In this document: piece after piece, positions 3,241 through 52,200 of the stretch | How positions within the stretch are numbered: the stretch's first letter is position 1 | Layout of the letters: each line of letters starts with the position of its first letter | Virus record (IMG/VR): IMGVR_UViG_3300032291_001823 | Coordinates: 1-64,000 of that record | DNA length: 64,000 bases | Source of the DNA: a virus | Reading direction: 5' to 3' (one strand) | Program-made: the position numbers and the translations under genes | Notes under the pieces: model-generated | The model's input: only the letters and a program-made list of their open reading frames with translations | Told to the model about the DNA's origin: nothing | Databases searched by the model: none

Positions 3241-4029
3241 TTATTTCATTGTTTTGAACTTCTCTACCAACCTTCCTTTTGCATTAATAGCAAGACTTAT
3301 ACAGTCTTTATTTCTTCTTAGCTTCTCAATAAAGGTTTTATGATTATAGTCTGTTCCTTCTTCTTTTACATACTTTATATACTCACTGCAGAAATACCTA
3401 TTCTCATAACGGCTCATTTTCATAACAACATTGAGAGCATCTTTAAGATATTCCATAAGAACGATTGCTCTTTGTTTGTTCTTTATAACAAAGTTGCCTG
3501 TTTTGATGAGTTTAGTTACATGTGCACCACTAGCAACTGTATTACCTGAGAAAACTGCTCCAATTATGCTAGCTTCTACATCGCTATATTTTCCAATATA
3601 ACTATTGAGCTCTTTGTAGTCATCTTTAAGATAAGACCAAGCGTCAATGTAATTGGTAAGAATCCAACTCTTAGAAGAATTGTTCAACATAGCAATAGTT
3701 TCTATTAATTCCTGTTGAGTTGCTATTTTAATAGTGATATAAGGAATATCAAAACCAAGTCTTTCAAGAGCTCTAAACATGTGCTGCCCATCAGCAACAT
3801 AAAGTTCAGGTTTACCAGTAAAGAATGCAACTTCTACTACAATTGCAGGTCTAACAACACTCAATTTCTTAACAGACTCATTAATAACATCAACATGCTT
3901 TGTATTCACACTTCTATTCATTAACCCTGGAAGAAAATGAATTTTTTTCTTTGATTTAGAACTGTACCATTTAAGATTGTTAAGAGCAAGTTTGTAAGAT
4001 TGATCTAAACGAAAATTGATTTTTTTCAT
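3241..4029 (-). CDS. ParB/Srx-like (DGQH) domain protein
   Basis: NRSVNTKHV...RPAIVV...LYVADGQHMFRAL...LNNSSKSW pattern. Confidence 0.7.
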   Translation of the reverse strand: MKKINFRLDQSYKLALNNLKWYSSKSKKKIHFLPGLMNRSVNTKHVDVINESVKKLSVVRPAIVVEVAFFTGKPELYVADGQHMFRALERLGFDIPYITIKIATQQELIETIAMLNNSSKSWILTNYIDAWSYLKDDYKELNSYIGKYSDVEASIIGAVFSGNTVASGAHVTKLIKTGNFVIKNKQRAIVLMEYLKDALNVVMKMSRYENRYFCSEYIKYVKEEGTDYNHKTFIEKLRRNKDCISLAINAKGRLVEKFKTMK

Positions 4030-4046
4030 AATAATTGATTTCTAGT

Positions 4047-4880
4047 TTAAAAATTGGTTTCTAACTCTTTTTTTGCTTTCCTTGTATATCCTTCTTTTTT
4101 AAAGTCTTTAATCCAAATAAGTTTACGTCCCACTCTACCTTCTCCATGAGCTTGTAGTCTAAAATGACCTCTCACTTTAAAAGCTTCTGACTTAATAAAC
4201 TCTGTAAACCAAGTTGAGTCCATGATTTCTATTTGATGGTCGTTATCATTATGATATCTACATTTAAACAGTTCGACTTTTATTTTTGGCTGCAAAACTT
4301 TTACTTTTACATCTGCATATTTTCTGAAAAGTTCAAATGCTATTACAATTGTGTAATAAAATTCACAGACTTTTGAACTTAAACTGGCATCATCAACAGA
4401 AACATTATTAATAGAAGTGGTAATAGCCTCCATTCTAGATTTTTGTAAAGGATTTATAAAACTATTAGCTTTAAATCCTGAAACTTGTACAGTGTAAAAT
4501 AGTAATGTTGTGTTTTTATCAAAAGCTGCTATACAAAAGTCATAATCAAGAGCTTCTGGACGTTTTGTAAACCTATAATATATCACCTCGTTCATTAATA
4601 AAACTCCTGTATGAGAATCTTTACAGTCCAAAGATGTCCAGATTTTTTTATCCATTAACTTAGGTACAGCATTCATAAAAGCCTCATCAAATGAATTAGT
4701 CATCTTTCTGATAACTATAGGAGCATCATCTAGATTCATTACATCATTGATTCTTTTCTTTAAAACTGTAATAAGTTCCTCTTTTTTAGGAACATTTGCA
4801 AGAATTATATCAGCATATTCAGGAATACATCTTTTCTTGATCCAATTAATGACTGGTATTCTATTAATTTTTTGTTTCAT
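4047..4880 (-). CDS. hypothetical phage protein with C-terminal VRGHFR motif
   Basis: FKVRGHFRLQAHGEG...KLIWIKDFKK C-terminal motif, typical of an uncharacterised phage family. Confidence 0.7.
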   Translation of the reverse strand: MKQKINRIPVINWIKKRCIPEYADIILANVPKKEELITVLKKRINDVMNLDDAPIVIRKMTNSFDEAFMNAVPKLMDKKIWTSLDCKDSHTGVLLMNEVIYYRFTKRPEALDYDFCIAAFDKNTTLLFYTVQVSGFKANSFINPLQKSRMEAITTSINNVSVDDASLSSKVCEFYYTIVIAFELFRKYADVKVKVLQPKIKVELFKCRYHNDNDHQIEIMDSTWFTEFIKSEAFKVRGHFRLQAHGEGRVGRKLIWIKDFKKEGYTRKAKKELETNF

Positions 4881-5631: not shown

Positions 5632-6198
5632 TTAAAATGAGTTTAATGTTATTGCGTCTAATTCTTCTTTTAGCTTCTCTACTAATTGGTTGTTCTCATA
5701 GCTAATCTCAACAAACTTACCTTTGTTAATCGCTACAGATAGATTGAGATTGTTCTTTTCAAACCAAAACTTATTGTATAGACATTTTTCAAGGGAAATA
5801 GCACTAAGCTCATACCCATCTCCATTCTCATAAGGAGATATGAAAAACTCATAAGAATCATCAGGTTCTCCAAGTTTCTCCTCCATAAGAGATGTGAATT
5901 TGTTATACATAGTTTTTAAAGACAACCAACTGTCTTGCTTTGGCAGTTGTACAACAGCTTTACAGAAAAGCTTTGTAGTTGGTGTGCTAACTAATAACAG
6001 CTTTACAGCATTACCAGCTACAGTTCCTTTCATTTGTACAACATTAGCCTCAGCTTTTACAAACACATAGCCTTTCTGCCTATATTTCATAATGGCACCA
6101 TTAATAGGACCACTAATAGAAACACCATCAAAGCTTTGTGCATTTGTCAAATTAGAATAAATAAACAACATCAAGGCAATAAATAAACATTTTTTCAT
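5632..6198 (-). CDS. secreted/periplasmic protein with Sec signal peptide
   Basis: Start moved to ATG 6198: MKKCLFIALMLFIYSNLTNA|QSFDG, a cleavage before Gln typical of Bacteroidota. The track's longer start overlaps the tRNA-like gene. Confidence 0.75.
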   Translation of the reverse strand: MKKCLFIALMLFIYSNLTNAQSFDGVSISGPINGAIMKYRQKGYVFVKAEANVVQMKGTVAGNAVKLLLVSTPTTKLFCKAVVQLPKQDSWLSLKTMYNKFTSLMEEKLGEPDDSYEFFISPYENGDGYELSAISLEKCLYNKFWFEKNNLNLSVAINKGKFVEISYENNQLVEKLKEELDAITLNSF

Positions 6199-6226
6199 GA
6201 TCTGGTTTTTTGGTTTTAAATATGAG

Positions 6227-6320
6227 CAGTCAGGACAGGATTCGAACCTGTATGATAACACGCCCTATTAATTAACGGTTGTTATCTACGTATAGCGTCT
6301 ACCAATTTCGCCACCTGACT
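6227..6320 (-). tRNA. atypical tRNA-like RNA (no canonical anticodon arm; identity undetermined)
   Basis: Acceptor stem AGTCAGG/CCTGACT, D-arm GCG-AAATTGGTAGA-CGC, T-arm ACAGG-TTCGAAT-CCTGT. The central ~43 nt form one long hairpin (GATAACA/TGTTATC). CCA is not encoded. Confidence 0.75.
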
Positions 6321-6324
6321 ATTT

Positions 6325-6468
6325 GCAACTTCTGGAGAGTTGCCACCCACCTGCAAACTTTTTCAATTTGAATATAGGCACCATTATGCCTTAGTAGGAA
6401 TTGAGTCATCAAGTTTGCTATGTCTATCCCAACCCAAGTGCGTGGGTTCAAGGGTCAAACTCCTACTT
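6325..6468 (-). ncRNA. candidate structured ncRNA (multi-stem, possible pseudoknot)
   Basis: Several complementary pairs of 5-8+ bp in 145 intergenic nt: AGTAGGA/TCCTACT, AACCCA/TGGGTT, GCAAACTT/AAGTTTGC, AGGCA/TGCCT, GCAACT/AGTTGC. Confidence 0.55.
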
Positions 6469-6478
6469 TGTGATTATG

Positions 6479-7075
6479 TCAATACTTCCTAAGCTCATCA
6501 ATTCCAAAATCAAGTTTTGGAGCTTGTGATGCCTCAAGAAGAGATTTTGAGAACATGTCTACATCCTCAAGAGCCAATTCAAGCTCATATTTGAGCTTTT
6601 TAAGGGCTTTTGTAGCATTATCCTTCACTCTTGCAATAGCTTTTTGCTCAAGCTGTTCAAATGGGAGCAATTCTGCACCCCATCTTGCAATAAGATGAAT
6701 ATCAGCTCTCCATTCAGATTCTGCTTTTGTAAAGCCAATAACAAATGGATCTGGACTCTTATCATCATAACAAATATGAATCATAGAATACCAACCATTC
6801 TCTTCAGCTTTCTGAATTTCCTTCAGAACATCCAAAGGAATTGTAGAAGCACTGTATTCCTTGTATTTAACCTGAACAGGACACAAGGTTTTGATAATAC
6901 GTGATGTCTTTGGATCTACATACATATAAGGAGGAGCTTTCTTCTCCTCACTCTTATCTGCATGTTTCAATTGTGCATCCAATCCAAGTTTGGATGCAAT
7001 TTCAAACCATTCTTGAGCGTGTTCTGCTTGCTCTAAGTCTTGGAGTTCTGGTTCGATGAAGATTTCTGTAGCCAT
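6479..7075 (-). CDS. conserved hypothetical phage protein (IPLDVL...PDPFVIG...IARWG)
   Basis: 198-aa ORF with TTAAACCAAAAAACCCCCAAAT-ATG leader. Confidence 0.8.
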   Translation of the reverse strand: MATEIFIEPELQDLEQAEHAQEWFEIASKLGLDAQLKHADKSEEKKAPPYMYVDPKTSRIIKTLCPVQVKYKEYSASTIPLDVLKEIQKAEENGWYSMIHICYDDKSPDPFVIGFTKAESEWRADIHLIARWGAELLPFEQLEQKAIARVKDNATKALKKLKYELELALEDVDMFSKSLLEASQAPKLDFGIDELRKY

Positions 7076-12170: not shown

Positions 12171-12489
12171 GAAAACTACATATATTAATGCAGAGCTCGA
12201 ATGGGCTGAAGAACAGCTTAAGAGCTGGAAAGCTTATGTTGATGCCAATCCTCTACATGAGCTCAAGGATAGGATTGAATGGAAGCCTACAGCTAAGGGT
12301 GGAATGCTACCTATGGTGATTGCCTCTATTGAAGCACAGGGTAAGTTTGTTCAGGAGACAATGAAGAACTATCTTGCATTGGTTGAAGTGGTGGATAAGC
12401 TGAGGAGTATTGAAGAAGCTAAGGTGGAAGTGAGAGGAAAGGGTGAACTTAGTGCGCAGGCAGAGGAGTTTTTGAAAAATAGAAAATGA
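12154..12489 (+). CDS. conserved protein upstream of terminase; candidate terminase small subunit
   Basis: Helical 111-aa protein ATGA-coupled to the large terminase. Function inferred from position only. Confidence 0.45.
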   Translation: MATAIKKTTYINAELEWAEEQLKSWKAYVDANPLHELKDRIEWKPTAKGGMLPMVIASIEAQGKFVQETMKNYLALVEVVDKLRSIEEAKVEVRGKGELSAQAEEFLKNRK

Positions 12490-14516
12490 ACAACCTAGAA
12501 TCAATAGATTATAAGGACTGGTTCATGAATCAAAAACGAATCCCTGATAGGGATAGTGATGAGTATGTTCCGTTCTTTAATTTTCATAAAAATCTTTGTT
12601 TAAACGGTGCTATGATGAATGGGGTGTATATCAACCCCTTTTTATATTGGCACCTAAACATATGGCATACGGAGGTGGATGTTATTGATGAGAGAGGTAG
12701 AATCTCTCAGAAATACGCCAATCCACTTCTGAGGGACAACGAATGGATTGTAACAAACGAGATTGATAGAGCACAGCAGGAGAAGAAAGGACTTGTCATT
12801 CTTGGTATACGAAGGTTTGCTAAGTCTGTTCTTGAGGCAAGTTATATAGCATGGGGAGCTACATTTGATGAAAACTCCCAAAACATTATTGCTGGACTGA
12901 ACGCTCCAGATATTAAGCTTATTACAGATAAGATTGATAAGGGATTAAACTTCCTTCCAGAAGCTTGGAGATGGCAGAGAATTGAGGACAATTGGAAGAA
13001 TCAAGTGACACTGGGTATTAAAACAAAGGGAGGTGAAAGGATTCCTTTCTCCCAAATCCTCATAAGGAACCTAGACGAGGGTAATAATGAGGAAGCTATT
13101 GCTGGTACCAAGCCACGTAAATTGATTATTGACGAGATTGGTAAGGGATCTTTTCTCAGAGGATTTCAGGCAGCTGTACCTGGTTTCACTACACCTTTTG
13201 GATGGGGTTGTTCCCCTATTCTTACAGGTACTGGTGGTGATATGAAGAAGTTTATGGATGCAAAGAGCTTAATGTTTGACGTAGACAATTTTAACTTTCT
13301 TACATATAACAATGACAAAGATACAGCAAGAGTGCACGGATTATTCATCTCGTACAAATATAGGATGGAGGCAAAAGAGGAGTCTAGCCTTGGTGAATTC
13401 CTTAAGGAACCTACTGGTAGCGATTTACACAACATTAAGATGTTGGTTAGCAATGAGGAAAAGGCAGTCAATATAACTACAGCCAACTTAGAACGTCTAA
13501 AGAAAGCAGGAGACAGGATAGCATATCTGAAGGAAAAGATGTACTATCCATTAGAAGTGGATGACATTTTCCTAAACGAGGATACAAATATATTTGATAT
13601 TGAGGCTGCTAAAAGACAGAAAACTAGGCTTTTATACCAAGAACGTACAGGCACCCCAGTGATATTGTTCTCTGATGGAGAAAAGATTGGTCATGATTTT
13701 ACAGATAAATTACCAATTACAAACTTCCCATTAAAGAACTCAGACGCAAAGGATGCCCCTATTGTAATATATGAGTTTCCTGTAAACAACCCTCCTTATG
13801 GATTGTACGTAGCAGGAGTTGACCCGTATAGACAAGGACAATCAGCATACAGTTCCTCTTTAGGAGCTGTATACGTATATAAAAGAATGCATGATATTAC
13901 AGGGGAGAAATATCAGGACATGTTTGTTGCTTCCTACGTAGCAAGACCTGATAAGAAGGAAAAGTGGGAAGAGCAGGCTAGATTGCTTATAAAATATTAT
14001 AACGCAAGAACTCTGTGTGAGAATGATGATATTTCCTTCATAGAATACATGAAAGCCAAGGGAGATGCCCATTATTTGGAGAAACAACCCCAATGGTTGA
14101 TGGAAGTTGTGCCAAACACAACAGTGAAACGTGAATACGGCATACACAGGAGCTCCCAGAAAATAATAGACTATCTTCACAACTGTCTTAAGAAGTATTT
14201 GGAAGATGTTATACATTCAGAAAAAGACGAGCAAGGTAATCTTATAAGAGAGGTTACAGGGGTGAGTAAGATATTTGATCCAGTGCTGCTTGAAGAGATA
14301 ATACAGTATAACGACCAGGGAAACTTCGATAGATTGGTTGCTGCAGAACTTGCTATAGCACAAGCCCTTAAAATGGACCCCATCATGGGAAGAGTTGGAG
14401 GTTCAGGAGACGAAAGAATAGCAGCTCTCTTTTCTAAGAACAAAAAGAAAAGATCCGTTATAGAGTCTTCAGGAGGAGGATTGTTTAACCATAGAAAAAA
14501 TAAACTCTTTACATAA
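12486..14516 (+). CDS. terL: terminase large subunit
   Basis: Walker A-like GIRRFAKS, Walker B LIIDEIG, coupling motif TGTGG, nuclease motifs YVAGVDPY and GNFDRLVA. Confidence 0.95.
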   Translation: MNNLESIDYKDWFMNQKRIPDRDSDEYVPFFNFHKNLCLNGAMMNGVYINPFLYWHLNIWHTEVDVIDERGRISQKYANPLLRDNEWIVTNEIDRAQQEKKGLVILGIRRFAKSVLEASYIAWGATFDENSQNIIAGLNAPDIKLITDKIDKGLNFLPEAWRWQRIEDNWKNQVTLGIKTKGGERIPFSQILIRNLDEGNNEEAIAGTKPRKLIIDEIGKGSFLRGFQAAVPGFTTPFGWGCSPILTGTGGDMKKFMDAKSLMFDVDNFNFLTYNNDKDTARVHGLFISYKYRMEAKEESSLGEFLKEPTGSDLHNIKMLVSNEEKAVNITTANLERLKKAGDRIAYLKEKMYYPLEVDDIFLNEDTNIFDIEAAKRQKTRLLYQERTGTPVILFSDGEKIGHDFTDKLPITNFPLKNSDAKDAPIVIYEFPVNNPPYGLYVAGVDPYRQGQSAYSSSLGAVYVYKRMHDITGEKYQDMFVASYVARPDKKEKWEEQARLLIKYYNARTLCENDDISFIEYMKAKGDAHYLEKQPQWLMEVVPNTTVKREYGIHRSSQKIIDYLHNCLKKYLEDVIHSEKDEQGNLIREVTGVSKIFDPVLLEEIIQYNDQGNFDRLVAAELAIAQALKMDPIMGRVGGSGDERIAALFSKNKKKRSVIESSGGGLFNHRKNKLFT

Positions 14517-17101
14517 TGGCAATAATTAGATATACAAAAGATGCTACAATACGTTATGCGTATTTAAATATATTCCCTGACCAGTTTAAAACTGAAAAGG
14601 AAAAGAGAGATGAGAGCTGGATAAAGAACACAATGGACTATTTTGCAAATAAGGCTTACGCTGAATATGTTAAAAATAGGGACACATTTGTTAAAAACTA
14701 CGATCTTGTAAAGGGCATCCTTCGTATGGAGGACTTCTATCAAGAGCCTGAGGTTAAGAGTTTTACAGAGATGCTTACAGCAGATTTGCAACTTCCTGCT
14801 TATGTAAAGCACTATTCAATAATAACAACACCGATTAACGAACTTGTTGGAGAGATATCCAAGCGTCCAGATGCATTTAGGGTGAAAGCTTTTGATGATG
14901 ACAGTCAGTCAGAGGAATTGAAGTTTAAAACAGAGATTCTTCAAAACTATGTAATGTCTCAAGCAAAGCAAAAGATTGCTGAGAAAATGGCTATGGAAGG
15001 AGCTGAGATTGATGAGGAGCAGCTTCAGCAAATGACAATTGAGCAAGTTAAGGATGAGCTAGATACATATACATCTGTTGCTGAGAAGTGGGCAAATCAC
15101 GTATTGACAGCCCAAAAAGCTGAGTTTATTCTGAAGGAAAAAGGTGAAGATGCCTTTAGAGACATGCTTATTTCTGCCAGAGAGTTCTTCCATATTTATG
15201 AGGACAACTCCAAAACTGGCTATAATGTAGAGGTGGCTAATCCAAAGAACACATGGTTTCTCACCACTCCAGATAGGAAATATATTTCTGACCCTACAGG
15301 AAGAGCTCAAGGTGCCTACGCTGCTGGTACAGTGCAGGTGATGGAGCTTTCTGAAATAATCGAATCCATACCAGATCTTACAAAGGATGAAATAGATCAC
15401 CTGAGAAGCTCTCTGCAAGACTATGGATTGATTAATGTTCGTGAATCAAACCTTGGTAATCCAGACGTATCTCCTGGTATTGATTCTGTTACATATGACA
15501 CTTATGACCCATTGGTTCTTCAGACAAGGATGATGATTGAGTCTGAGATGAAAGAGAATAATGATGGGTTGAAAGATTTTCTAGGACTCACATCAAACGT
15601 TTCCTCTTTTGGTTACAAGTATGTGGTTGTTAGATCTTATTGGTTGAGTAAGAGGAAAATAGGTAAGCTTATTTACATAGATGAACTGGGAAATGAACAG
15701 TCTATTCTGGTAGATGAAAATTATAAATCGGGAACAATCCCTACACAACAATCTCTTGAATGGGGATGGGTTAATCAGTGGTATCAAGGAACTAAGATTG
15801 GTCCTGACATCTATCACATCAAGCCTTACAAACTCTTGAACTATTGCCCTATAATAGGACTTGTTCATGAGATTAAGAACACTGAAGCTAAGAGTCTTGT
15901 AGATCTTATGAAGCCCTTCCAGGTGTTGTACAACGTATGTATGAACCAGCTTTACAAACTCCTTGAGAAAGAAGTGGGTAAGGTGTATTTGACATCTATT
16001 AGACACGTTCCTGTTCCAAAGGATGGTGATGCTCAGGATGCTCTTGATGTTTGGGAAATGGAAGCTAGAAACAGAGGTGTAGTGTTTATTGATGACTCTC
16101 CAGAGAACCTAAAAAGCCCAAGCTCATTCAACCAATTTAGAGATATTGACCTTACACGCACGCAGGAGATTCAATCTAGATATCAGCTTGCTCAACAACT
16201 CAAGAGTGAGTGTTGGGAGCTCATAGGTATGACTAGGCAGCGTATGGGTTCTATTTCAGCAAGTGAGTCTGCTACAGGTGTAAATGCAGCTGTTCAACAG
16301 TCGTATTCCCAAACAGAGCCTCTGTTTGTAGCACACGAGTATGTAATGGGTCAACTGTATCAAGCAATTATTGATGCATCTCAATATGTTGAAAGCAAAA
16401 AACCACAATCCACGCTTTCATACATCACATCTGAAGGAGAATCTGCATTCATCCAAGTTAATGGTACAGATTTGAAATTCCGTGATTTGAAAGTCTATCT
16501 TACAAATCGTCCTGAAGATAAGAAGATGTTTGATGAGATTAGAGGTCTTTCTCAGGCAGTTCTTCAAAATGGTGGTTCTCTGCATGACATAATTGAGCTT
16601 TATTCAACAAATTCTGTTAGGCAAATGAAGAGAGTGTTCAAAACTCTCAAAGAAAGGCAAGAACAACTGCAAGATCAGCAGATGCAAATGCAACAGCAGC
16701 AGATGGAGCAGCAGCAACAAATTGCTCAAGCTCAGATGGAACAAGCACAAATGCAGAACGAGCAGAAGGTTGCAAATGAAAACTACCAAAAAGAACTTGA
16801 CAGGATCAATAAAAAGGAAATTGCAATCATCCAAGCAACAGGATTTGGTAAAGTGGAGAGTGAGGATTTGAATAGCAATGCTGTTCCAGATGTCCTTGAG
16901 ATGAGCAGATTTGCTAGCGAAGAGGCTCAAGCTGCTAAAGATTACCAAATGAAAATGTCTGATATACAAAATAAGAACAGGCTTGCTGCAGAGAAAATGC
17001 AAATAGAAAGAGAGAAAATTCAATTGGCTAGAGAGAATCAAGCAAACGATTTAGCAGTAGCTAAAGAGAATGCAAAGGGCAGAAATAAAAAGAAATCGTA
17101 A
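14516..17101 (+). CDS. portal protein
   Basis: 861 aa directly after terminase; HYSIITTPINELVGE, KSLVDLMKPFQVLYN, GMTRQRMG and Q-rich C-terminal coiled coil, as in crAss-like portals. Confidence 0.9.
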   Translation: MAIIRYTKDATIRYAYLNIFPDQFKTEKEKRDESWIKNTMDYFANKAYAEYVKNRDTFVKNYDLVKGILRMEDFYQEPEVKSFTEMLTADLQLPAYVKHYSIITTPINELVGEISKRPDAFRVKAFDDDSQSEELKFKTEILQNYVMSQAKQKIAEKMAMEGAEIDEEQLQQMTIEQVKDELDTYTSVAEKWANHVLTAQKAEFILKEKGEDAFRDMLISAREFFHIYEDNSKTGYNVEVANPKNTWFLTTPDRKYISDPTGRAQGAYAAGTVQVMELSEIIESIPDLTKDEIDHLRSSLQDYGLINVRESNLGNPDVSPGIDSVTYDTYDPLVLQTRMMIESEMKENNDGLKDFLGLTSNVSSFGYKYVVVRSYWLSKRKIGKLIYIDELGNEQSILVDENYKSGTIPTQQSLEWGWVNQWYQGTKIGPDIYHIKPYKLLNYCPIIGLVHEIKNTEAKSLVDLMKPFQVLYNVCMNQLYKLLEKEVGKVYLTSIRHVPVPKDGDAQDALDVWEMEARNRGVVFIDDSPENLKSPSSFNQFRDIDLTRTQEIQSRYQLAQQLKSECWELIGMTRQRMGSISASESATGVNAAVQQSYSQTEPLFVAHEYVMGQLYQAIIDASQYVESKKPQSTLSYITSEGESAFIQVNGTDLKFRDLKVYLTNRPEDKKMFDEIRGLSQAVLQNGGSLHDIIELYSTNSVRQMKRVFKTLKERQEQLQDQQMQMQQQQMEQQQQIAQAQMEQAQMQNEQKVANENYQKELDRINKKEIAIIQATGFGKVESEDLNSNAVPDVLEMSRFASEEAQAAKDYQMKMSDIQNKNRLAAEKMQIEREKIQLARENQANDLAVAKENAKGRNKKKS

Positions 17102-40605: not shown

Positions 40606-43248
40606 ATGGCTTCATTTACTGACCAAATAATGCAATTTAACCCATACGTTCAGCAATTGCCTGTTGAGGCAATGGCTAAAGTGGGTATGTATAAACAACA
40701 GAAGTATGAAGAAGGGGTACAGAAAATCCAAAGCTATATAGATAATGTGGCTGGATTGGATGTTGTTAAACCATTACATAAACAATATCTTCAATCCAAG
40801 CTTGATGAGCTTGGAGGAAAACTGAAGAGCGTAGCTGCTGGAGACTTCTCAAACTTCCAATTAGTTAACTCTGTAGGAGGAATGGCTACACAAATTGCAA
40901 AAGACCCCACAGTACAAAATGCAGTAGCATCAACTCAATATGTAAGAAAAGGACAGCAAGATATGGAGACTGCTAGAAAAGCAGGTAAATCTTCTGTACA
41001 AAACGAAGCATGGTTTAATAATAAAATAAACGGATGGTTAAATAACAATGACATAAATGCTTCTTTTTCGGACTATTATGTTGAATATACAGATATTGAA
41101 AAGAAGCTTAGGGATGTTGCAAAAGATGTCCACGAATACGATCGATCTATAGAAATGCCTTTCCAAAGAGATAATGGTGGCAATATTTTATATTTTGATA
41201 AAAATGGTAATGTTACAACTCCAGACAAAGGGCAGAGTAGGATTGATGAAGTGCTGCTAAAAACTAAAGTTAAAGGGAAATCTGCTCAAAAGATTCTTGA
41301 TAACTTTTACAGTAGTATTGATGAGAATGATAAAAGACAATTGAATATTGACGGTTGGTATCATTATAGAGGATACACTGGAGACTCGTTTAAACAAAAA
41401 ATAACAAGTGATATAACTTCTTCATACAATATGAAGAAAGACATACTATCAAAAGAAATTGTCAAGATATCAACAGAGCTCTCTGGAAATTCTAAGCTTA
41501 CAAAGGAACAAAGAAATGCTCTTACAGCAAAGATGAACGAGTATACAGATCTTGTAAACAAAGGTGGAATAGATAAAGAGCTTAGTGAGAAACTTAGTGA
41601 TATTGGTAGAATTAGCGATGATGAACTTAAGGGTTCAGTTTACATGGAAAAAACATTAAATAAACTGGCCACTGATATTTCCTACCAAGATATAGAAACA
41701 GAATATAAAGACAACCCTTACTTCAATGCATTGATGAAGAAGAAGGATTTAGCATTTAAATATTCAGAAGCTGTTAGAGACCAGAAGAATAAAGATAGAG
41801 ATTACGGGTTAAGTCTAGAAAGACTTAATATAGAAAAATTCAAGTTAACAAAAGATGCTGCTGGTAAAGATATTATATTCGAAAACTTAGGAACATCTAC
41901 AGATAAAACTCTTCCTACACTTGGGGATTTGCAAAATGGCATCACTGGTCTTGATGACGAAATGCAAAAGTTTAAACGAGAGAACGCTCCTTTTGTTATT
42001 TCAGGATATAACGAGATGAATGATGTTCAGAAAAGAGAGGCAATGAATAGCCTAGTTGATCAATACCTAGCAAACCCATCAAGCATCACTGATAATAACA
42101 AAAGAAAAATTCTTGATCAGTGGATTGGTATGCAAACTGATATGACTAGGAGAATGAGCAATTATGTAAACATTACACAAAAGGCAAAACCTTTTGACGA
42201 CGCAATTAATAATATTGCAGACTCTCTTCCTGGATATGTAAAAAATGGTACACAAATATATAGTGCTAAAGAAATCAGAAGTATAACTAGTGATATTAAT
42301 AGATTTACTTCTTCTTTACAATTAAACAAATTTGGAGTTCCTATTGGAGGTGGGGTGACAGATTGGGGTAAAATGAAACAAGCATACGCTAATTCAAAAT
42401 ATCTTCCAATAATTAATGTTATTGAGAAAAGACAAAAAAGTGGATTGGCATCATTAGTTGGTGAAGAAATGGAGATTGCAAAAACACTTGATAATATTCG
42501 TAGTCAAGTTAGAGAGAAATCAGCTAAGATTTCAAAAGATAAAGATAATTTTATTAATACAGAACTTGGAAAAATAATGCCTCAGTATCAAGATGAAGTT
42601 GGTACATTGGATAAAGAAGATAAGGTTACAATGGGAAAAGTTGATAATCTTATTGGTAACATGTATGGGATAGCAAGTCAACTTGGTGGAAAGATTGATT
42701 CTGAAAAGTTTGACCCTGCCACCATAACAGCATGGAGAACAGGTAAGCAAGCTAGTGATTTAAAATATGTTGTAAAGAGAAAAGCTGATATGTCTCAAGG
42801 AACTCTTCAAATATTTAATGGAAACGAAGTTCAAGAGATTCCACTTAACTCTAAACAACTAGGTAGATATTTTCCACAAGCAGCTAAAGGACATCCTCTA
42901 GATAGTGCGAAATATATGGTAATGAGTTCTCCTACAAAAACAACAAACGCAGCTGGAGTAGTTGATGGTGGACCATCTGGAGCATTAAATGCTGCATTTA
43001 CAGGAGATCAGCTTCCGCTATTGGCAGGAAGTAAATATTCAAGTTTGGTAAGATTTGACATTGAAGGCGCTTCTGACAACGATGGTGGAGACGACGATCT
43101 ATACCAAATTAGAATGTATGTAAATGATAATGGTATTTGGAAAGATGATGTTGTGAACAAAGAGGGCTTTGCAAAATTAGATGGTGTATTTGCAATTATG
43201 CAAAACATTGGTACAAAGAAATATCAAGAAATAAAAGATAGCAAATAA
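40606..43248 (+). CDS. cargo/internal virion protein
   Basis: FNPYVQQLPVEAM...QQKYE N-terminus typical of the gene preceding crAss vRNAP; TAATG-coupled to it. Confidence 0.65.
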   Translation: MASFTDQIMQFNPYVQQLPVEAMAKVGMYKQQKYEEGVQKIQSYIDNVAGLDVVKPLHKQYLQSKLDELGGKLKSVAAGDFSNFQLVNSVGGMATQIAKDPTVQNAVASTQYVRKGQQDMETARKAGKSSVQNEAWFNNKINGWLNNNDINASFSDYYVEYTDIEKKLRDVAKDVHEYDRSIEMPFQRDNGGNILYFDKNGNVTTPDKGQSRIDEVLLKTKVKGKSAQKILDNFYSSIDENDKRQLNIDGWYHYRGYTGDSFKQKITSDITSSYNMKKDILSKEIVKISTELSGNSKLTKEQRNALTAKMNEYTDLVNKGGIDKELSEKLSDIGRISDDELKGSVYMEKTLNKLATDISYQDIETEYKDNPYFNALMKKKDLAFKYSEAVRDQKNKDRDYGLSLERLNIEKFKLTKDAAGKDIIFENLGTSTDKTLPTLGDLQNGITGLDDEMQKFKRENAPFVISGYNEMNDVQKREAMNSLVDQYLANPSSITDNNKRKILDQWIGMQTDMTRRMSNYVNITQKAKPFDDAINNIADSLPGYVKNGTQIYSAKEIRSITSDINRFTSSLQLNKFGVPIGGGVTDWGKMKQAYANSKYLPIINVIEKRQKSGLASLVGEEMEIAKTLDNIRSQVREKSAKISKDKDNFINTELGKIMPQYQDEVGTLDKEDKVTMGKVDNLIGNMYGIASQLGGKIDSEKFDPATITAWRTGKQASDLKYVVKRKADMSQGTLQIFNGNEVQEIPLNSKQLGRYFPQAAKGHPLDSAKYMVMSSPTKTTNAAGVVDGGPSGALNAAFTGDQLPLLAGSKYSSLVRFDIEGASDNDGGDDDLYQIRMYVNDNGIWKDDVVNKEGFAKLDGVFAIMQNIGTKKYQEIKDSK

Positions 43249-46200
43249 TGGCAATTTTTAAAGAAGAGTTGATAACAAACACTCCTTTAGAAGGAGATCC
43301 TATTCCGCAACTTGCATTAGGTACTCCTCAATTAAGTGCTATGCCCACACTTCCAAATATTGAAGTTAGTGGAGGCTCTGTAAATAAATCTATAGAGGGT
43401 CTTGACTCTTCTCAATTATCAAAGCTTGCAAAACTTCCTGGACAAGGTGGTGGTGCTAATCTTATTCCGTTAAGTGAAGTGGCAGCTAACAAAAGATACA
43501 ACACTTATGTTAGAGGGATGGATCTTGAGAATATTTATGGAATGCAACAATCTGCATGGGCACAATTGGGAAATAGTGCTGTGAAAATGGCAGGATTGGC
43601 TGCAGGTACATTTGCTCAAAGTTTTGCTACAATTCCTAATACTATTTCTGCTTTTAAAAATGGTACAGCTGCTTTATCTGGAGGACCAGATAGTTATGAA
43701 GCTGCAATAGATGATTGGACAAAAAATCTAGAAGACTATTTTCCTAACTACTACACTAGAAAAGAAAAAGAAAATCCATATCTAGCAATAGTTCCTTTCA
43801 TGCCTGGAAGTGCTAATTTCTGGGGTGATAAAATTATTAAGAATCTTGGTTTTACAGCAGGAGCTATTGGTGGAGCTCTTGTACAAGATGCAATTATTGG
43901 AGCTGCTACAGAAGGAATTGGAGCTGCTCCATTGGTGGCATCTCAACTTGGTAAAGCTTCTTTGTGGTTAAATAAACTTTACGCTGGTAGTACAAAAGTA
44001 GATAAGGTTTTAGATCTTGCAAAAACTGTTGGAAAAACTGAACAACAAATTCTAAACATTAAACGTTTAGGAGAGATTGCTGCTGGAACAAAAGTAACAA
44101 ACGGATTTAGATATGGAATGGGCATATATGGCTCTTCTAGAACTGAAGCTGCAATTGAGGCTCGTGATGGATATAGGCAAGTGAAGGATGAGTTGATTAA
44201 AGAATATAAAAGTCAAAATCCTGGAAAAGAACCAATTAGTTCTGATTTAGAAGAAATTGAAAAATATGCAACAGATGCAATGAATACCAGATTTGGTATT
44301 AACATGGCACTACTGACAGTATCCAATGCTGTTCAGTTTGGAAACTTGTTTAAATCATTTACATCTGCTCAAAAAGGAATTAGCGGACAGCTCACAAGAG
44401 ATATAGACGAGGTTGGTAAAATTGGACTTAAGGAAGGATCGCTTGACTTGTTTGAAAGAAAAGGTGCTCAAACACTTTCTGGAAAAATCTGGGAGTCTGT
44501 ACAACCTAAATTGCCAAACATTCTGTCAGAAGGTGTATATGAGGAAGGTGGTCAATATGCTGCAGAAAAAGGAACTTATGATTATTTTACAAGAAAGTAT
44601 AAAAATCTTTCAAACCCATTATACAAAGATAACTGGAGCACCACTGTTGAAGCAGTTAATTCTACAGTGAAGGGACTAAAAGATCAATTTGGAACAGACG
44701 AAGGATTGGAGAACATGATTGTTGGTGCAATCAGCGCAATGATTAGTGGTGGAATAATGTCTAAAATTGATACAGTAAGAGGACAAGGATCTGATGAACG
44801 TTTGCAAAGTTCTATAAACATTCTCAATCAATATGGTCTCACTGGAGTGTTGAGTAGTAATTTTGAAAACACTTTGAACTCAGCTGGCATTGCTAAAGAG
44901 ATGGATGAGGCTGTAAAAGCTAATGACGTCTTTAAATATAAAAATCTTAAGAACGACATGTTCATCAACTTTGTACAATCACGTATTCCTTCAGGAATGC
45001 ATGAGGTTACAATTGAACAGTTGAGGATGTTGAAAGATTTGGATAAAGCTGAGTTTGAGAAGTCATTTGGTATGGACTTCAATTCTTCCAATAAGTCCAC
45101 TGTAAATGAATATGTAGATTCATTAATTGATGAAGCTAATCAAATTAAGAAGATTAGTGATTCAATTGATTTTACATTCAAGAATCCTTTCAAGAAGATA
45201 GACAACCCAACCACTACTGAAGAGGGAATTGAAACCTCACGTTTTAATGATTTCAATAAATGGAAAGCAGAGCTTACATTTCTTGCAGCAAAGATTCCAC
45301 ATGTAAATAACAGATTAGACTCTATACAACAAAGTGTCAATAGCATTAGTCCTATTGTTACAAATGATTTGCTTTCTCAATTAACAAACAAAGAGTCTCT
45401 TAAAGATCTTAGCACATCTTATGAGGAAAAAGCCAATCAGTTAAATAAAACTATTACAGAGTTTACATCTATACAGGATAAGAAAAGAATAAACAATCAG
45501 GTTAAGGCATTACGTACAGCTTCTGAAAGAATCAATCTTGGTTTGACAAATGGTGTAGATGGTAAATTATTTGATTATCTACTCAACTTTGAGCTCAATA
45601 ATCAAGACCCAACTGCTAGCAGACAAGTTGGTCCAGAGAATACCACTGACTTATTCACTTATGGTCATGACATTAATAGGCTCAACTCTCTGAAAGATGA
45701 TGTGTCTGAATTATACGACAATCTCACAGGCGAAAAAGGATTTAACAAATTCATGGACCAAGGAGAGCAGCTTCGTTCTGGTGCTATTCCTGAGGAAGAA
45801 GATAAAGAAGAAAAAGAGATTGTTGTAAAAGAAGGTCCTCAGTTTACAAATAAAGCTGGTGTTAAAGAAACATTTGAAGAGGGTAGAGAATATCAAATTC
45901 CTGCAGGAAAGAAAGCTAAAATTGATAAGATTGCTGATGATAGGTGGCAAGTGACTGCACCTGATGGTAACATCACCTTTTATGAATCTGAGGAAAAAGC
46001 AAAAGAACAAGTTGATTCTATAAATGAAGAATTTGGTAATCTTCAGAAAGCAAAGGTGATTGCTATCAATCCTGATGGTACACTGAAGGTGGAAGATATA
46101 AATGGTGACATATATAATGTCGATCCATCCAAGTTTGAGGGGTATGAAAAGGTAGAAACTGAGCAGGAGAAACTGCAGAAGTTTAAACAAGATGTAGAAG

Positions 46201-49200
46201 AAGATCAAAAAGATATAGAACATACATCTGGAACAATAGCTTCCAAAGAAAATACAGCAAAAACAAAAGCTGAGTTTGATGTAGAGAGTAAGAAGAAAGG
46301 AATTGAATGGTTATTTATATCAACTAGTGGTGCGTCTGAAGACTGGGAATCAGGTAAACTTAGTCCTAGTCAGCAACGTGCTATTACACTTAGGAACAAT
46401 TACAGAAACCTTCCTAACAGAAACAACCTCAGAATAATCCTTGTTACACAGAATCAAGAAAACTCTCTTGGTTTATCTGGACTGACAGCAATGTCAATGG
46501 CTAACACTGGTGTAGATTCTTCTACATACACAGACTTGAATGATGGATTTGTTGGTGCAGTGTATGTTGAACAAGATGGGGCTGATGTATATTTTGTAGA
46601 TAAGAGTGGTAAGAAACTTGGAAAGGTTGGTGATCCTGTGGACATTAATCAAGTGGTATTTGATACAATGCCTACAACAAGTCTTACATGGAGTGATAAA
46701 GAAAATAGGTATAGAGCTGGAGATGAGGATAAGGCACAAGAGTATTCAGATAGGTGGAAAGCAAAACGCAACCAACTGTTTAACACTCCAGAAGGAAAAT
46801 ATGAAATCTATAAGTTTTCTGTAAGCCCTGGTATTCCAGACATAGCAAACCTTAGCGATAACAACACTGTTGGTGAAACTCTTATTCCTGAAAATGAGAT
46901 TGTTTACCAAGAAGGACTTGTTGTAATCCCTACAACAGGAAATATTCAACACCAAGGACGCAACCTTAAGTTTCCTGATGGTGTTCCTGTTTTCCAATAC
47001 AGAGATGTATTGACATTCCTCAAGACACGTAAGTTCACTAAAGCTGAAGCACGAACTATTTTTGAGGTGATGAAAAAGATGTCTGAAGACATCAAACAAA
47101 AACTTGACCAAGGAAAGAAAATAAAGAGCAACAAGAAGTATACAAGGTTCCTTCAAAATGTTCTTTATTGGAGGAAATCACCAAAGACAGATAAGAATCA
47201 GATATTCATTGACTATGATACAATGGATTTCTTCTTTGGTGGAAAGAGATATGATTTGACAAACCTTGGTGCAAGTGAGGCTGAAATTATAGATCAGCTT
47301 GAGAATCTCTACGCTAACATCAATAATGACTCTCTTACAAAAAACTTTAGTGAGAAGTTTAATGAATATTATATTGATGAGTCTAAAAATCTTGCAACAA
47401 GAACATGGGATAATTATCAGTCTTATCTGTTGTCTTCAAAGTATCCAGATGGGTCTAATAGGTCAGTGGTAGACATTCCTTTGACAACTCCTATTCAGAA
47501 ACCTACAGAGCTTAAGCCTTTTAATTTCAAACAAAAGTATTCCATTCTTGAGGGAGTGGAACTTCCTTCTATTGAAGTGAAGCCTGTTGTTAAACCAGAA
47601 GCTCCTACAGCACCTGCTCCTTCTGGAAAGAAGATAGGTGATTACACCGTAGATGGTGTAACGCAAAACGTATACCAACTTAAGAACGGTCCTGTTGGAT
47701 TTACAGCCACTATTAAGGATGGTGAAGTTTTTGTAGAGGTTGAATCTAATGACACAATAAAGAAAATTACTGATAATAAGGATGCTCTTAACAATACAAT
47801 AATTCCTTTATTAAAAGCAGAAAAGAAATTTGATGCTACAGAAAAAGACGAACAGCATGTTCTTGGTTTTGTTTCTCTCAAAATAGCAAACGATTTACAA
47901 AAACAATTGAATGCTTCAGTTGCTCCTACAACAGCAGCTGTATTGCAGCCTGATGTTTCTCCTCTTGCACAAGTGCAAGGAACAGCTAGGACAGAGCCTC
48001 TTACAACAGCAGTTTCTACAGATGCTAAGACTGATATAGAAGAAACTGGAAATCAGTTACAGGTTATTCAAATGATGACTCTTCGTATAAAGTCTTTGTC
48101 CAAAGAAGAAAGAGCTTTGATGGACAAATACTACGATGTACTAAATGCTGAAGGTTTAAGGAATGGAAAAGAGTTGTCTGAACTGTATTATAAAGTTAAA
48201 AAAGACGGTAGTAATCCTGAGCTAGTAAAGAAGGTAGATGAGTTTCTTTCAGAAGTTAAGAAACTTCAAGCAGCTCCTGCTGTTACAGATGTTAAACCAA
48301 CTACTCAGTTTACTCAATCTTTTGGAGCCTTTACTGTCTATGAAGGAAGTGACGGATCATATGATGTACAAGATAATACTGGTGAAGGCATAATAGCTGA
48401 GTATGTTAAAACAAAAGAAGAGGCTATACTCATAGCTAAGCGAGCTGATATAGAGAAAAGAAAACAAGAAGAGATAAAACAAAAAGCTCCATACGTTTTA
48501 ATAAAAGGAAGCTATGAGGGAGAGAATAAGACAATCGGTACATTAACTTTCAAAAGTAATGTAGACAATATATATGCATACGATGAAGGAAGTACAAACA
48601 TATCTAAAGACGCACTAAGAGGTGATAAGAGACTTTCAAAAATAACTAAAGAACAATACGACGCTGCTATAAAAGCACCTGAGTTAATAAAAGAAATTGA
48701 GGCTGAATATAATGCAAAATTAGATGTCTTAGAAGGGATTAAACCTACTGCACCAACAAATTTTGGAGGAACTAAACCACCTCCTAATACAGAATATAGA
48801 AGAGTGGGTGCTGATGGAATAGAAAGAATTTCTAGTGAAGAGCTTGAGTTGTTCAAAGCTTGGGCTGCTGAAAAGGTTCCTACTATTCCATATACAGTGA
48901 TGGAGAATGTTCTTACAACACATGATGGTGAGAAAGCATGGGGTGCATTTGAAAATGGTGTTGCTAAGTTCTATAGGTCTGCAGCTAGAGGTACAGAATA
49001 TCATGAAATAGGAGAAGCTGTATGGAACGGTATGCTTTCTCCTGAAGAGCGTCAGGCTATTCTTGATGAAGAAAGACAAAAGTCTGGTAAGTTTAAAGAT
49101 AGACAATCAGGAAAAACTTATTCCTATGATGATCCAAATGTAACTGACCAGATGCTGAAGGAGAGAATCATGGATGATTTTGCTGAGTTTAGACTTGGTA

Positions 49201-52200
49201 AACTCCCTGCTCGTTCTCTGAAGGAGAAAGTTCTCAGATTCTTCAGAAGCATTATTGAATTCTTCAAGCAGTTTGTACAGAAACCTTCTATGAAGGAACA
49301 ACTGTTTAAAGCAATTGACACAGGTAGATTTAAAGAAAGAGTTATTTCAGAGAGCGCAAAGAATGAATTTGCTGAATATAGAGCTGTAGAAGGATTGACA
49401 GAAGAGCAAACTCATGACTTTGTACAGGATATTACAGCTCGTGTTTTTCAAATAGCATTTGGAACAAACATGTCTTTGTACAATCCTGAGCAAATTACAG
49501 CTCCTCAAATATTTGCAGAAATAAAAGAAAGCTATCAACAAGAAGGAAAATTAGATTTGCTTTCTGAAAATACATGGAGACAACTTATTGGTAAAACTCG
49601 TGACTTCCTTCGTACGTTCAAAATAGATTTTGATGAAGAGGGTGTTCTTGGTATAAACGATGAGAACTATAATAAGAATGATTATGCTCGTGAGGCATTC
49701 TCTACAGACTGGAAAAAGTCTTCTCCATTTCCTATCAAGTTAATCCTGGGTACATTAACAGAAACTGTACCAACAAGTCAGATAGACACCACTTCTTTGG
49801 ATCTTCCAAAACAAAAACTGTCTAGTGTAAATGGATATAAAATTCTAAACTTTGCAAGAACCTTTGCAACAGCTTTGGATAAGTTTGCAAACACCAACAG
49901 TGTAACAAAACTTGTAGACAAACTTATCGAACTGTCTAGATATGACAGTAATTACGTTCGCCTCTTCACTCGTCTGAAGGGAGATAGAAACACTGTATCT
50001 ATAGACTTCTCAAAGTTCGAAGAGCAAGACTGGAGACTGTTCATCAACTTCTACCAGACATTTACAAAACAAAAACCTAATGCTGTTATACAATATATAG
50101 GTGAAAACAATGAAGTGTATAATGGTGCAGCTAATCTGTTCAGTGCTGTAGAACAATTTAAACAGGGATGGATTGAGAATGTTAAGACGTTAGCAAATGA
50201 TAATACATCTCTGATATATTATTATTCTCCAGATAAGACATATAGAACAAAGAAACTGTCTGATATTCCTATTGGTAATCCTCAACAGATGGTTGAGTTT
50301 CTTGACAAGCTTGGTATAAACTTCCCATTTGAGGTGTATCAAAACCTTAAAGACCCTCAACAAAAAGCTTTTGGAAGAGCTATATCTGCAATACATAAAT
50401 ATGCAAGTGAGAAAGAGATAGGAAAGGTTACAGGAGAAACACTCACCATAAATGGTCAGCTGAACACTCTTGCAGAACTTTATATAAAAGCCACCAATCC
50501 AAATATAGATTCTACATATTTTGGTGTAGATGGTAAACGTCAGCAATCTTATGCTGATAGTAATGCACCTTCTGTATTTGAGAACACGTTTAATGAAATA
50601 GAAACACTTGACGAGCTTCTTTCTGCAAGACCTGAACTTAACGATGTATTCTCTAAGAACAGTTTGATTCTAAAAAAAGGAGGACCATTCTTTGACAAAG
50701 ATGGTAAACGTACAGATAGGAAATTGAAAGTGGGCTACATCCAAGGTACAAAAGATACAGTGGATGATAAAGGAACATCTACATCAAAGCTAGGACTTGG
50801 TAGTAGGTTTACACAAGAGTTTAATCAAAACTTGTCTGGTGACTACTATATTCTTATTCCTGCAGACGGATCTACAGAATGGATGCTCAATCTTGGAAAC
50901 CAAATAAGTTTTGAAGATTTTGAAGGAAATGAGGCAAATGATCAAATCCACAAAGTGTTCAGAGGTTATCTGGAAGATGAGATTGAACTTGCCCTGTCTG
51001 ACAGGTCTTATTTGAGAAATGTCAAACCTCGTGCAAAAGAACTTCGTTTCTTCAAAGATATTCTTTCTGAAAACCTTTTGACAAACTTAAACAAGTTAAT
51101 AGAAAAAGGTGACAAAGAAAAAATCAAAGAGTTCATTGATGAAAATATTTCTGAGATAAATGCAAACATAGACGACTATGTAAATGGTACAGTGGATGAT
51201 TCAATTAGAGATTTTAAAAATAATAGTCAGATTTTCCAAATTAATGAGGATGCTTATTCATTCCCATTAATGAATGATAAGTTTGCAAAAGAGCAAGATG
51301 TTAATAAATATAACATGTCTGAGGATGAGCTGAAGGCATTGTTCAAATTTGCAAACACCAATTACATCATAAACAATATTGAGTTCCATAAGATATTGTT
51401 TGGTGATCCTTATCAGTTTGCAATTAAAGAAAATCAACTGGATGAGACAAAACGTATCAAATCATTCCTCTCTCCAAGAAGAGTGACATTTGATAGCCCT
51501 GAGTTTAACACATGGTTGAATAGTAAGAATAAAGCAGGAGACATTTCTCTCTTACCTGGAGATCCTGGTTACCATGTACATAAAAGTTACACTTCAACAA
51601 TCACCACTGCTGACGTAAATATTGTTGGTAGTATTGCTATGATGGAAGGTGTTCCTAAAGATATAAAAGATGCTTATGCCAAAACAAATGAGGCAGATGC
51701 AGCATCTATATTGATGGACACTACATACAGAGAAATCAAGAATAAGAACGGACAATGGAGTAGGGAAGCTGAAGATTGGCATCAGTGGCAAATGGCTTAT
51801 ACAAGAAACAGGATGTCTGCCAAAGGATTGTACACTTATACAAATGACAATCTTAAAAAACAAGATGAGAAAACTATATCATCTCCTTCACCTAAACATA
51901 CATTAGAGATATTGAAACCTATTGTGACTGGTAGTAAACACAATAAGAACACTATCGATCTTGTGTTGGATAAGTTTTCTCAAATGCCCATGTATTATAG
52001 CATGATTGAGGGAACCAATCTAGAGAACCTCTATCTGAAGATGATGAAGGAGGACGTAGGATATACAATAATGATAAGTGGTAGAAAGGTTGGAGCTGAA
52101 AGTCTTCATAGTTTGTACAATCAAGATGGCTCATTTAATCAAGAAGCTTTCAATAATCGAATTGAAGTTCCTTGGAAGGCTTATGGTATTCAAGTGGAAA

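Follow-up and report, generated by a model that had tools for sequence, protein, structure and literature searches.

An anticodon-less, tRNA-Leu-like phage RNA with an exchangeable insert: a candidate tRNA mimic from a large phage family

A 94-nt tRNA-shaped RNA encoded by a tailed phage lacks the anticodon arm and is non-decoding. It belongs to a large, uncatalogued family that is so far represented by uncharacterised examples from phage T5. Our preferred explanation, held with confidence near the halfway mark, is that this small RNA derives from class II tRNA-Leu, that it would combine a constant chassis with an exchangeable module, and that it would act as a tRNA mimic in the conflict between phage and host. 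The chassis comprises the acceptor, D and T arms, which form an L-shaped upper body. The module, a linker of 8-9 nt followed by a hairpin of 7 bp with a 19-nt loop, replaces the anticodon arm and fills the position of the variable arm.

Results

The phage and the locus

The window, as the whole 64,000-nt stretch analysed is called here, forms the first part of a 93.5-kb IMG/VR virus record. The phage is tailed and encodes a terminase (12486-14516), a portal protein (14516-17101) and one ORF of 4298 aa. The terminase showed 27-41% identity to those of Leptolyngbya phage Lbo-JY46, Cellulophaga phages phi17:2 and phi4:1, Flavobacterium phages and gut crAss-like phages, which on this gene places the phage as a distant relative of the crAss-like phages. 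DNA runs with this phage came from metagenomes of freshwater, sediment, soil and wetland; no RNA run with the locus was listed. A BLASTN search with the 3-kb region gave no match among 50,697 phage records.

The RNA gene reads from 6320 to 6227 on the minus strand, between the minus-strand genes at 6479-7075 and 5632-6198, and no other tRNA or tRNA-like gene was found in the 93.5-kb record. The leader directly upstream of the element was ~99% identical in two near-isogenic relatives (L002 and L003) and had a fold z-score of only –1.6; it is probably co-transcribed with the element. In another relative of this phage, L005, a tmRNA is encoded near the syntenic place. The features of the locus, in the order of transcription, are as follows.

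6321-6478, minus strand: conserved non-coding leader, 158 nt, directly upstream of the element; ends ...GCAAAU, with U at –1
6227-6320, minus strand: whole tRNA-shaped RNA gene, 94 nt, discriminator G (6227) included
6314-6320, minus strand: acceptor stem, 5' strand AGUCAGG, pairs 7/7 with 6228-6234
6295-6311, minus strand: D arm, stem GCG/CGC, loop AAAUUGGUAGA, class II Leu type, G18G19 present
6287-6294, minus strand: single-stranded linker UAUACGUA, 8 nt, in the place of the anticodon arm
6254-6286, minus strand: module hairpin GAUAACA/UGUUAUC, 7 bp, 19-nt loop, at the class II variable-arm position
6252-6253, minus strand: AU junction; U6252 is the equivalent of position 48
6235-6251, minus strand: T arm ACAGG-UUCGAAU-CCUGU, read directly; the commonest T arm of the family
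6228-6234, minus strand: acceptor stem, 3' strand CCUGACU, pairs with 6314-6320
6199-6226, minus strand: 3' trailer CUCAUAUUUAAAACC..., reaching the ATG of the next gene; first base C; CCA not encoded

A tRNA body without an anticodon arm

Direct reading of the element bore out the original prediction: the acceptor has 7 bp, the D arm is of the Leu type, the T arm is canonical, and the anticodon arm is absent. U8 and G9 stand between the acceptor and the D arm, the T-loop fits the pattern UUCRANY, and the U at –1, the C at +1 and the U at 6252 are placed as in tRNA genes. A 5-bp anticodon stem with a 7-nt loop, U33 and a Leu anticodon is absent, and the discriminator is G73, not the A73 of class II tRNA-Leu. 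The fold z-score of the element was –2.6.

The Rfam tRNA model (RF00005) matched the element only under permissive filters, with 38.9 bits (gathering score 29; E-value 1.7e-6 over 1 kb and 3.7e-8 over the 93.5-kb record) and a 26-nt insertion at the anticodon loop, compared to 55-75 bits for the true tRNAs in arrays that hold such elements. The default-filter Rfam scan of the window gave no match because its filters lose the element, and ARAGORN reported zero tRNA and zero tmRNA genes in the window and in the whole 93.5-kb record. The blindness of both tools would explain why genes of this kind stay unannotated.

A large phage family shares the chassis

IMG/VR was scanned for the two acceptor halves plus the beginning of the D arm, 62-92 nt of any sequence being allowed between; neither the rest of the D arm nor the T arm was required. 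At least 120 stretches matched, and these loci held at least 133 distinct elements of 83-113 nt. Among the matches listed, a D arm of the Leu type (GCG...CGY) was present in 112 of 133 elements and the exact T arm of the window in 63 of 133. D and T arms were nearly invariant across these matches, the T-arm variants being mostly single changes in the T-loop or at the first stem base, and a few carrying compensatory stem changes. The inserts between the arms, 31-63 nt long, fell into at least ~82 unrelated classes among the matches listed. A covariance search had been proposed at the outset to look for conserved arms with variable middles, and this is the pattern found in the relatives.

A second IMG/VR scan, anchored on the D and T arms with the acceptor left free, returned at least 104 elements, with at least ~50 combinations of acceptor and discriminator among the matches listed. 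In these matches the acceptor was paired at 7/7 positions in 90 of 104 and at 6/7 in 12 of 104, and no true tRNA-Leu was among them. In a 62-member alignment all seven acceptor pairs covaried and 99.4% of the cells were paired; double-change cells numbered 168 compared to 40 in shuffles, and pairing dropped to 33-39% when the partners were slid. Stems that covary across hundreds of relatives agree with the initial view that the element is kept by selection and is not decaying.

A looser family pattern (Leu-type D and T arms, a paired 7-bp acceptor and 28-72 nt of unrelated sequence between) recovered at least 208 distinct anticodon-less elements from the viral contigs fetched, with 41 distinct acceptor stems, all of them paired. 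The window element fits the patterns of both IMG/VR scans; its score of 80.9 bits with the family model R1 is high by construction, since the sequence is in the training set. A14, A15 and G18G19 were invariant across the family, and in the fetched contigs the discriminator was A73 in 189/208 elements (91%) and position 48 was U in 194/208 (93%).

True tRNA-Leu genes on the same chassis were few in the same contigs, only 3 among the matches listed. The true tRNA-Leu(UAA) of contig L110 has a T arm equal to a common family variant, and a D arm of the window type is present in the true tRNA-Leu(UAG) of Ralstonia phage RsoM2USA, to which one BLASTN match of the 94-nt element had led; BLASTN otherwise gave only partial arm matches to ordinary tRNAs. 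The existence of true tRNA-Leu genes on this chassis makes it most likely that the family descends from phage tRNA-Leu.

Many members lie within tRNA arrays, with at least a dozen in 5 kb of L012, and others amid 20 or more true tRNAs in L118 and L032. A scan of prokaryote genomes (one for each of 185,579 species) yielded ~13 true elements, all on short MAG contigs, and the matches in isolates were chance matches without the T arm. The family is phage-specific. No published description of it was found in a literature search that covered few subscription journals.

The inserts do not form an anticodon arm

ARAGORN forced 32 of the 133 relatives into tRNAs, with 14 amino acids and 19 triplet anticodons among them and also anticodons of 2 and 4 nt. 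Loops of the predicted insert hairpins ranged from 3 to 21 nt, and 7 nt was not favoured. A helix ended no more than 3 nt from the T stem, at the variable-arm position, in 59% of the classes, that of the window included, and began directly after the D stem in 38%. The inserts folded only modestly better than shuffles (mean z –0.7). The lack of a common anticodon arm among the relatives supports the proposal, made from the sequence of the window, of a non-decoding tRNA mimic.

The insert of the window element recurs in six phage lineages

Scanning by the conserved loop flanks of the window insert turned up, in chassis context, 11 distinct copies of the same insert class; the six phage lineages that carry them have unrelated flanks. 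One copy stands on a different acceptor stem, ACGGGGG, and the other copies of the class carry A73. The linker UAUACGUAG was invariant in 11/11 distinct copies and the loop flanks ACCGUUAAU and AGGGCG were constant, and the loop centre varied. Positions 2-4 of the module stem read AUA/UAU, GGU/ACU, GUA/UAU and AAC/GUU among the lineages, and two positions each showed three different Watson-Crick pairs. These compensatory changes back the long hairpin GAUAACA/UGUUAUC as it was first drawn. Its palindromic cap, UUAAUUAA, is present as described but is only the loop centre, which varies among homologues. We take the conservation of linker, loop flanks and stem pairing to indicate that the module is under selection and is functional rather than filler.

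No neighbouring protein was common to the six lineages, and the RNA gene therefore moves as a self-contained unit. Among the matches listed, none of the neighbouring ORF clusters occurred at more than 15 of 120 loci, and the recurrent neighbours were ordinary phage genes (terminase, RNase H-like, VRR-NUC, HNH, GIY-YIG and PolA). A dedicated protein partner is not encoded nearby. Across the insert classes the motif GUAAG(U) was weakly enriched, partly as GNRA-type loops.

Cassette exchange between near-identical phages

Cassette exchange was seen at this locus between near-identical phages. The flanking proteins of L002 and L003 were 96-98% identical to those of the window, and in all three genomes the 180 nt upstream and the start of the downstream gene were ~99% identical, with the gene body between them replaced. 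The 105-nt element of L002 carries an unrelated insert and the compensatory T stem ACUGG/CCAGU; ACUCG/CGAGU is the second compensatory T stem of these near-isogenic relatives. L003 has two elements with a 78-aa ORF between them. One has the different acceptor GUUGGGA/UCCCAAC, a 5-bp stem that closes a 9-nt loop, and another hairpin; the other combines the acceptor of the window element with yet another insert. The element of L002 and both copies in L003 carry G73, as does the window element. The discriminator G and the trailer thus stay with the locus, which puts the breakpoints inside the chassis, and since the insert class of the window occurs elsewhere on A73, the discriminator travels with the locus and not with the module.

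In four metagenomes from four studies the summed contig depth was ~55-920 over the chassis arms compared to ~6 over the flanks. Each run gave 48-159 records, many of which span the chassis arms alone and then continue into other inserts or flanks. No listed contig crossed the element in three of the four runs; the contigs stopped within it or at its edges. The frequent exchange could in part be mere recombination of repeated sequences rather than selection for diversity. A diversity-generating retroelement was considered and rejected, because the changes affect insert length and all four bases rather than adenines alone.

Flanks of the tRNA type

RNase P cleavage, 3' trimming and CCA completion are general tRNA biology. 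The base at –1 was U in 78% and a pyrimidine in 96% of the 208 elements, and the discriminator was followed by C in 200 of them (96%), the full CCA being rarely encoded. True class I tRNA genes of the same contigs had this C in 394 of 404 cases and the full CCA in only 45. Some members elsewhere have a TAnnTTTG box of the Bacteroidota type, a promoter-like –7 element, a few bases upstream. The likeness of the flanks to those of true tRNA genes in the same contigs suggests that the element is matured in the style of a tRNA. To judge by its flanks, the window element would be transcribed within the minus-strand operon; RNase P would cut after U–1, and 3' trimming and CCA completion would follow after the encoded C. 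Because no terminator-like site was found on either side of the element and its flanks are of the tRNA type, we propose that the RNA is cut from the operon transcript.

Likeness to known RNAs

Among ordinary tRNAs the closest likeness is to class II tRNA-Leu (RF00005), which has the same acceptor, a 3-bp D stem with the loop AAUUGGUAGA, the T arm and U48, a hairpin at the variable-arm position and the same style of 5' and 3' flanks. Unlike the window element, it has an anticodon stem-loop and A73 in place of G73.

The tRNA-like stable RNAs of T4 and T5 have been known for decades. T5 RNA1 (NC_005859 30501-30644) is annotated as a tRNA-like stable RNA with unknown functions. The whole family chassis aligns with it, with a 7-bp acceptor, an identical D-loop (GGAAUUGGUAGACG), the T arm and a long insert, and like many family members it sits among phage tRNA genes. 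It differs from the window element in an insert about twice as long (element ~131 nt), in the sequences of the acceptor and T arm, in its discriminator U and in its E. coli host. The chassis model gave T5 RNA1 34.1 bits and the true tRNA-Leu of T5 36.8 bits, and the model therefore cannot separate membership of the family from a shared origin in tRNA-Leu. T5 RNA2 has the family T arm (GCAGGUUCGAAUCCUGU) and a looser likeness than RNA1. Where its tRNA cluster ends, T4 encodes two small RNAs, rnaC (species 1) and rnaD (species 2), annotated as stable RNAs of unknown function. As in the family, an acceptor and a T arm make up a tRNA-like domain in rnaC, in its 3' 92 nt, which scored 28.5 bits, a generic match; unlike the family, rnaC has no Leu-type D arm and has extra 5' sequence. 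T4 rnaD did not match the chassis model.

Lbo-JY46, the closest cultured relative by terminase, carries an unannotated 102-nt member of the family on the minus strand of PP438436, at 124040-124141 (44 bits, ARAGORN silent). Its acceptor has 7 bp and its D arm is of the Leu type; the insert is 49 nt long, with its last hairpin directly against the T stem, and the discriminator G is followed by C.

tmRNA resembles the element in the upper half made of acceptor and T arm and in a large insertion between the halves. It differs in its G3:U70 pair (U-A at 3:70 in the window element), its tag reading frame and its pseudoknots, and the element has a true D stem; neither ARAGORN nor Rfam detected a tmRNA at the window locus. 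Other tRNA mimics are YrlA (a bacterial Y-RNA-like RNA), the mascRNA of MALAT1, the tRNA-miRNA chimeras of gammaherpesviruses and engineered tRNA scaffolds, in which a chosen RNA is displayed where the anticodon arm would be. As in our proposal, these use the tRNA fold for processing, stability or docking and a different part for specificity. YrlA, unlike the element, has its termini at the anticodon side, and these mimics differ from it in host and lineage; no relation by Rfam or by sequence was found between them and the window element.

Discussion

We believe that the chassis would provide for processing, stability and docking onto tRNA-binding proteins, and that the module would be the specific, exchangeable part, with recombination inside the conserved chassis exchanging whole gene bodies. 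Three features fit a trans-acting mimic whose action is specified by its module: both parts are under selection, the element is independent of the neighbouring genes, and near-identical phages swap it rapidly. As to what it might act on, we tentatively suggest a decoy or uncleavable competitor for tRNA-directed enzymes of the host, such as defence tRNases; the decoy role raised in the original prediction thus stays plausible. Septu and retron-Eco7 cleave class II tRNA-Tyr in its variable loop and are countered by tRNAs of phages (PMC13096335); the anticodon arm of tRNAs is cut by OLD (PMC12445682) and by bacterial Schlafens (PMC13056530). Since such defences cut anticodon and variable arms, a tRNA body without an anticodon is an obvious candidate for a counter-measure. 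The inserts are unlike anticodon stem-loops, and a classical substrate decoy for anticodon nucleases is therefore not evident. The window lineage, with G73 in a family that is 91% A73, may also differ in function from the bulk of the family.

The near-isogenic trio of the window, L002 and L003 amounts to a swap experiment made by nature and points to fast turnover, as at loci of phage-host conflict. The architecture of T5 RNA1 becomes one instance of a very abundant, phage-specific family with a constant tRNA-Leu body and exchangeable, individually conserved modules, which standard tRNA finders and default Rfam scans miss; to this the window adds a clean case of module exchange and a G73 lineage. 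More speculatively, and with considerable doubt on our part, the leucine-tRNA body could be a platform for hundreds of different small RNA modules, traded between co-infecting phages by recombination inside that body. The modules would then make up a fast-evolving set of decoys or inhibitors aimed at tRNA-directed bacterial immunity or at other host factors that bind tRNA, and the T5 stable RNAs, perhaps with those of T4, would belong to the set. T5 and Lbo-JY46 are cultured, which opens the family to direct testing. If the anti-defence idea is wrong, the elements would still be a large class of structured RNA that merits an Rfam entry.

Five other explanations bear on the same evidence. In the first, the RNA would be a chargeable but non-decoding carrier of leucine, which once leucylated would act through its aminoacyl end, for instance by soaking up LeuRS or EF-Tu or by serving as the donor in non-ribosomal aminoacyl transfer. 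E. coli LeuRS reads A73 and the elbow and core of the tRNA and ignores the anticodon arm and the long variable arm. Family elements have a D loop of the Leu type and size, and true phage tRNA-Leu genes have the same LeuRS-type features; with A14, A15, G18G19 and U48 kept, and A73 in most cases, most members could be leucylated. We consider the explanation unlikely for the window element, which has G73 like the elements of L002 and L003, where the G73 chassis keeps different modules. G73 in the window lineage, together with the same module on A73 elsewhere, makes it unlikely that leucine charging is essential here, and the explanation does not account for inserts that are diverse yet individually conserved.

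It is likewise improbable, in our view, that the element is a regulatory RNA scaffolded by a tRNA body, in which the module would base-pair with, or be an aptamer for, an RNA or metabolite of host or phage and the chassis would merely stabilise and process it. Such an RNA would suit the conserved single-stranded segments (UAUACGUAG and the loop flanks in this class, GGUGGUAUAAAU in another) and the mobility of the element as a unit without a linked protein. Against it, the phage's own 93.5-kb record holds no complement of 11 nt or more to the window insert, an Rfam search of the inserts at eight array loci matched no known RNA family, aptamers and sRNAs included, and the near-invariance of the D and T loops exceeds what, in our judgement, a mere scaffold seems to need.

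The original prediction had also allowed for an RNase P/RNase Z tag for a neighbouring RNA. As a pure processing signal, the element would cut the transcript between the genes at 6479-7075 and 5632-6198, or mature the upstream 158-nt RNA, and the released RNA itself would be functionless. In favour of such a signal, the genes on both sides share the strand of the element, neither side has a terminator-like site, a conserved structured leader precedes the element and the base at –1 is U. We nevertheless disfavor this reading and think it quite unlikely to be the whole explanation: six unrelated contexts preserve the insert, with compensatory changes, elements occur in arrays of a dozen and among full tRNA sets, and a promoter-like –7 box of their own lies immediately upstream of some members. 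The D arm, moreover, is nearly invariant, and a minimal RNase P substrate probably needs no D arm.

An element acting at the level of DNA, as a recombination hotspot, an attachment site or a target of homing endonucleases and not as an RNA gene, is very unlikely. The chassis is highly repeated in metagenomes, assemblies break there, and genes for HNH and GIY-YIG endonucleases are among the recurrent neighbours. The covariation of the acceptor, with its 41 different paired sequences, is in contrast a constraint at the level of RNA, the 20 most recurrent neighbour clusters of the 120 loci listed included no integrase, and flanks of the tRNA type are kept. The attachment-site reading in particular was rejected on the acceptor covariation and these flanks.

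That the element is a real decoding tRNA with an intron or an expanded anticodon loop, or a decaying tRNA-Leu pseudogene, is barely credible, even though the Rfam alignment of the window element draws a 5-bp stem AUACG/CGUGU closing a 26-nt loop and related contigs such as L110 have a true tRNA-Leu(UAA) with the same D and T arms: that stem overlaps the 3' strand of the covariation-supported hairpin, and the relatives share no anticodon arm. A cloverleaf with a 7-nt loop, a plausible intron and decayed stems, each of which would have spoken against the original prediction, were looked for and none was recovered. No bulge-helix-bulge could be drawn and Rfam gave no intron match; the excess is 19 nt, far too short for a group I intron, and by hand no 19-nt excision from the 26-nt loop leaves U33 and a purine at 37. 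The pseudogene reading was rejected on stems that are intact and covarying and that, family-wide, are 99% paired, the opposite of decay.

Arrays and insert classes in other phages

In locus L012 (contig IMGVR_UViG_3300035681_000025; whole 4957-base locus), at least 12 elements with the chassis of acceptor stem, Leu-type D arm and T arm, each 85-169 nt long, were interspersed with true tRNAs within 5 kb. In some phages, chassis RNAs thus come in whole arrays. One insert class, found at L004:4388-4493 (plus strand) and in the relatives L074 and L127, had the acceptor and T arm of the window's element together with a disrupted D arm (GGCGAAAGCUAUUGGUAAAG...), and this broken-D-arm class was conserved across at least these three contigs. 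A family member was also present, unannotated, in a cultured phage, where it overlapped the end of a small predicted ORF:

L350:1501-1602 (PP438436.1 124040-124141), minus strand: anticodon-less Leu-type tRNA-like gene, 102 nt, Leptolyngbya phage Lbo-JY46

Among 404 true tRNA genes in the viral contigs of loci L008-L235, C was encoded directly after the discriminator in 394, with the full CCA encoded in just 45; the 3' end style of true tRNA genes in these contigs is uniform and unusual.

Leader and flanking genes

The window's element is adjoined on its upstream side by a leader that was ~99% identical across the window and its near-identical relatives L002 and L003:

6321-6478, minus strand: non-coding leader, 158 nt

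It contained several hairpins (AACCCA/UGGGUU, AGGCA/UGCCU, GCAAC/GUUGC) and, at ~6354-6361 (minus strand), the sequence AAAGTTTG, which nearly matches the Bacteroidota -7 box; the fold z-score of the leader was only -1.6. A GGCAACU...AGUUGC hairpin resembling the leader's was seen upstream of family members in three other loci (L023, L035 and L108).

The L003 phage, 96-98% identical to the window's, carried at the corresponding locus:

L003:3756-4306, plus strand: two tRNA-like genes with unlike acceptor stems

Between them lay a 78-aa ORF (3877-4113) and a leader unlike the window's, which ended at its 3' end in GCAAAU, as the window's leader does.

A more distant relative (flanking protein 66% identical), immediately downstream of a gene pair homologous to the window's, carried:

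L005:4234-4680 (contig IMGVR_UViG_3300020159_001521), plus strand: full-length tmRNA (Rfam 78.7 bits, E = 2.6e-29)

G3:U70 was present, and ARAGORN did not report this tmRNA.

Two further genes lay in the window, the first in the structural module and the second in an early-looking minus-strand block:

43248-56144, plus strand: 4298-aa ORF
3241-4029, minus strand: ParB-like protein (phrog_12305, E = 6.9e-15)
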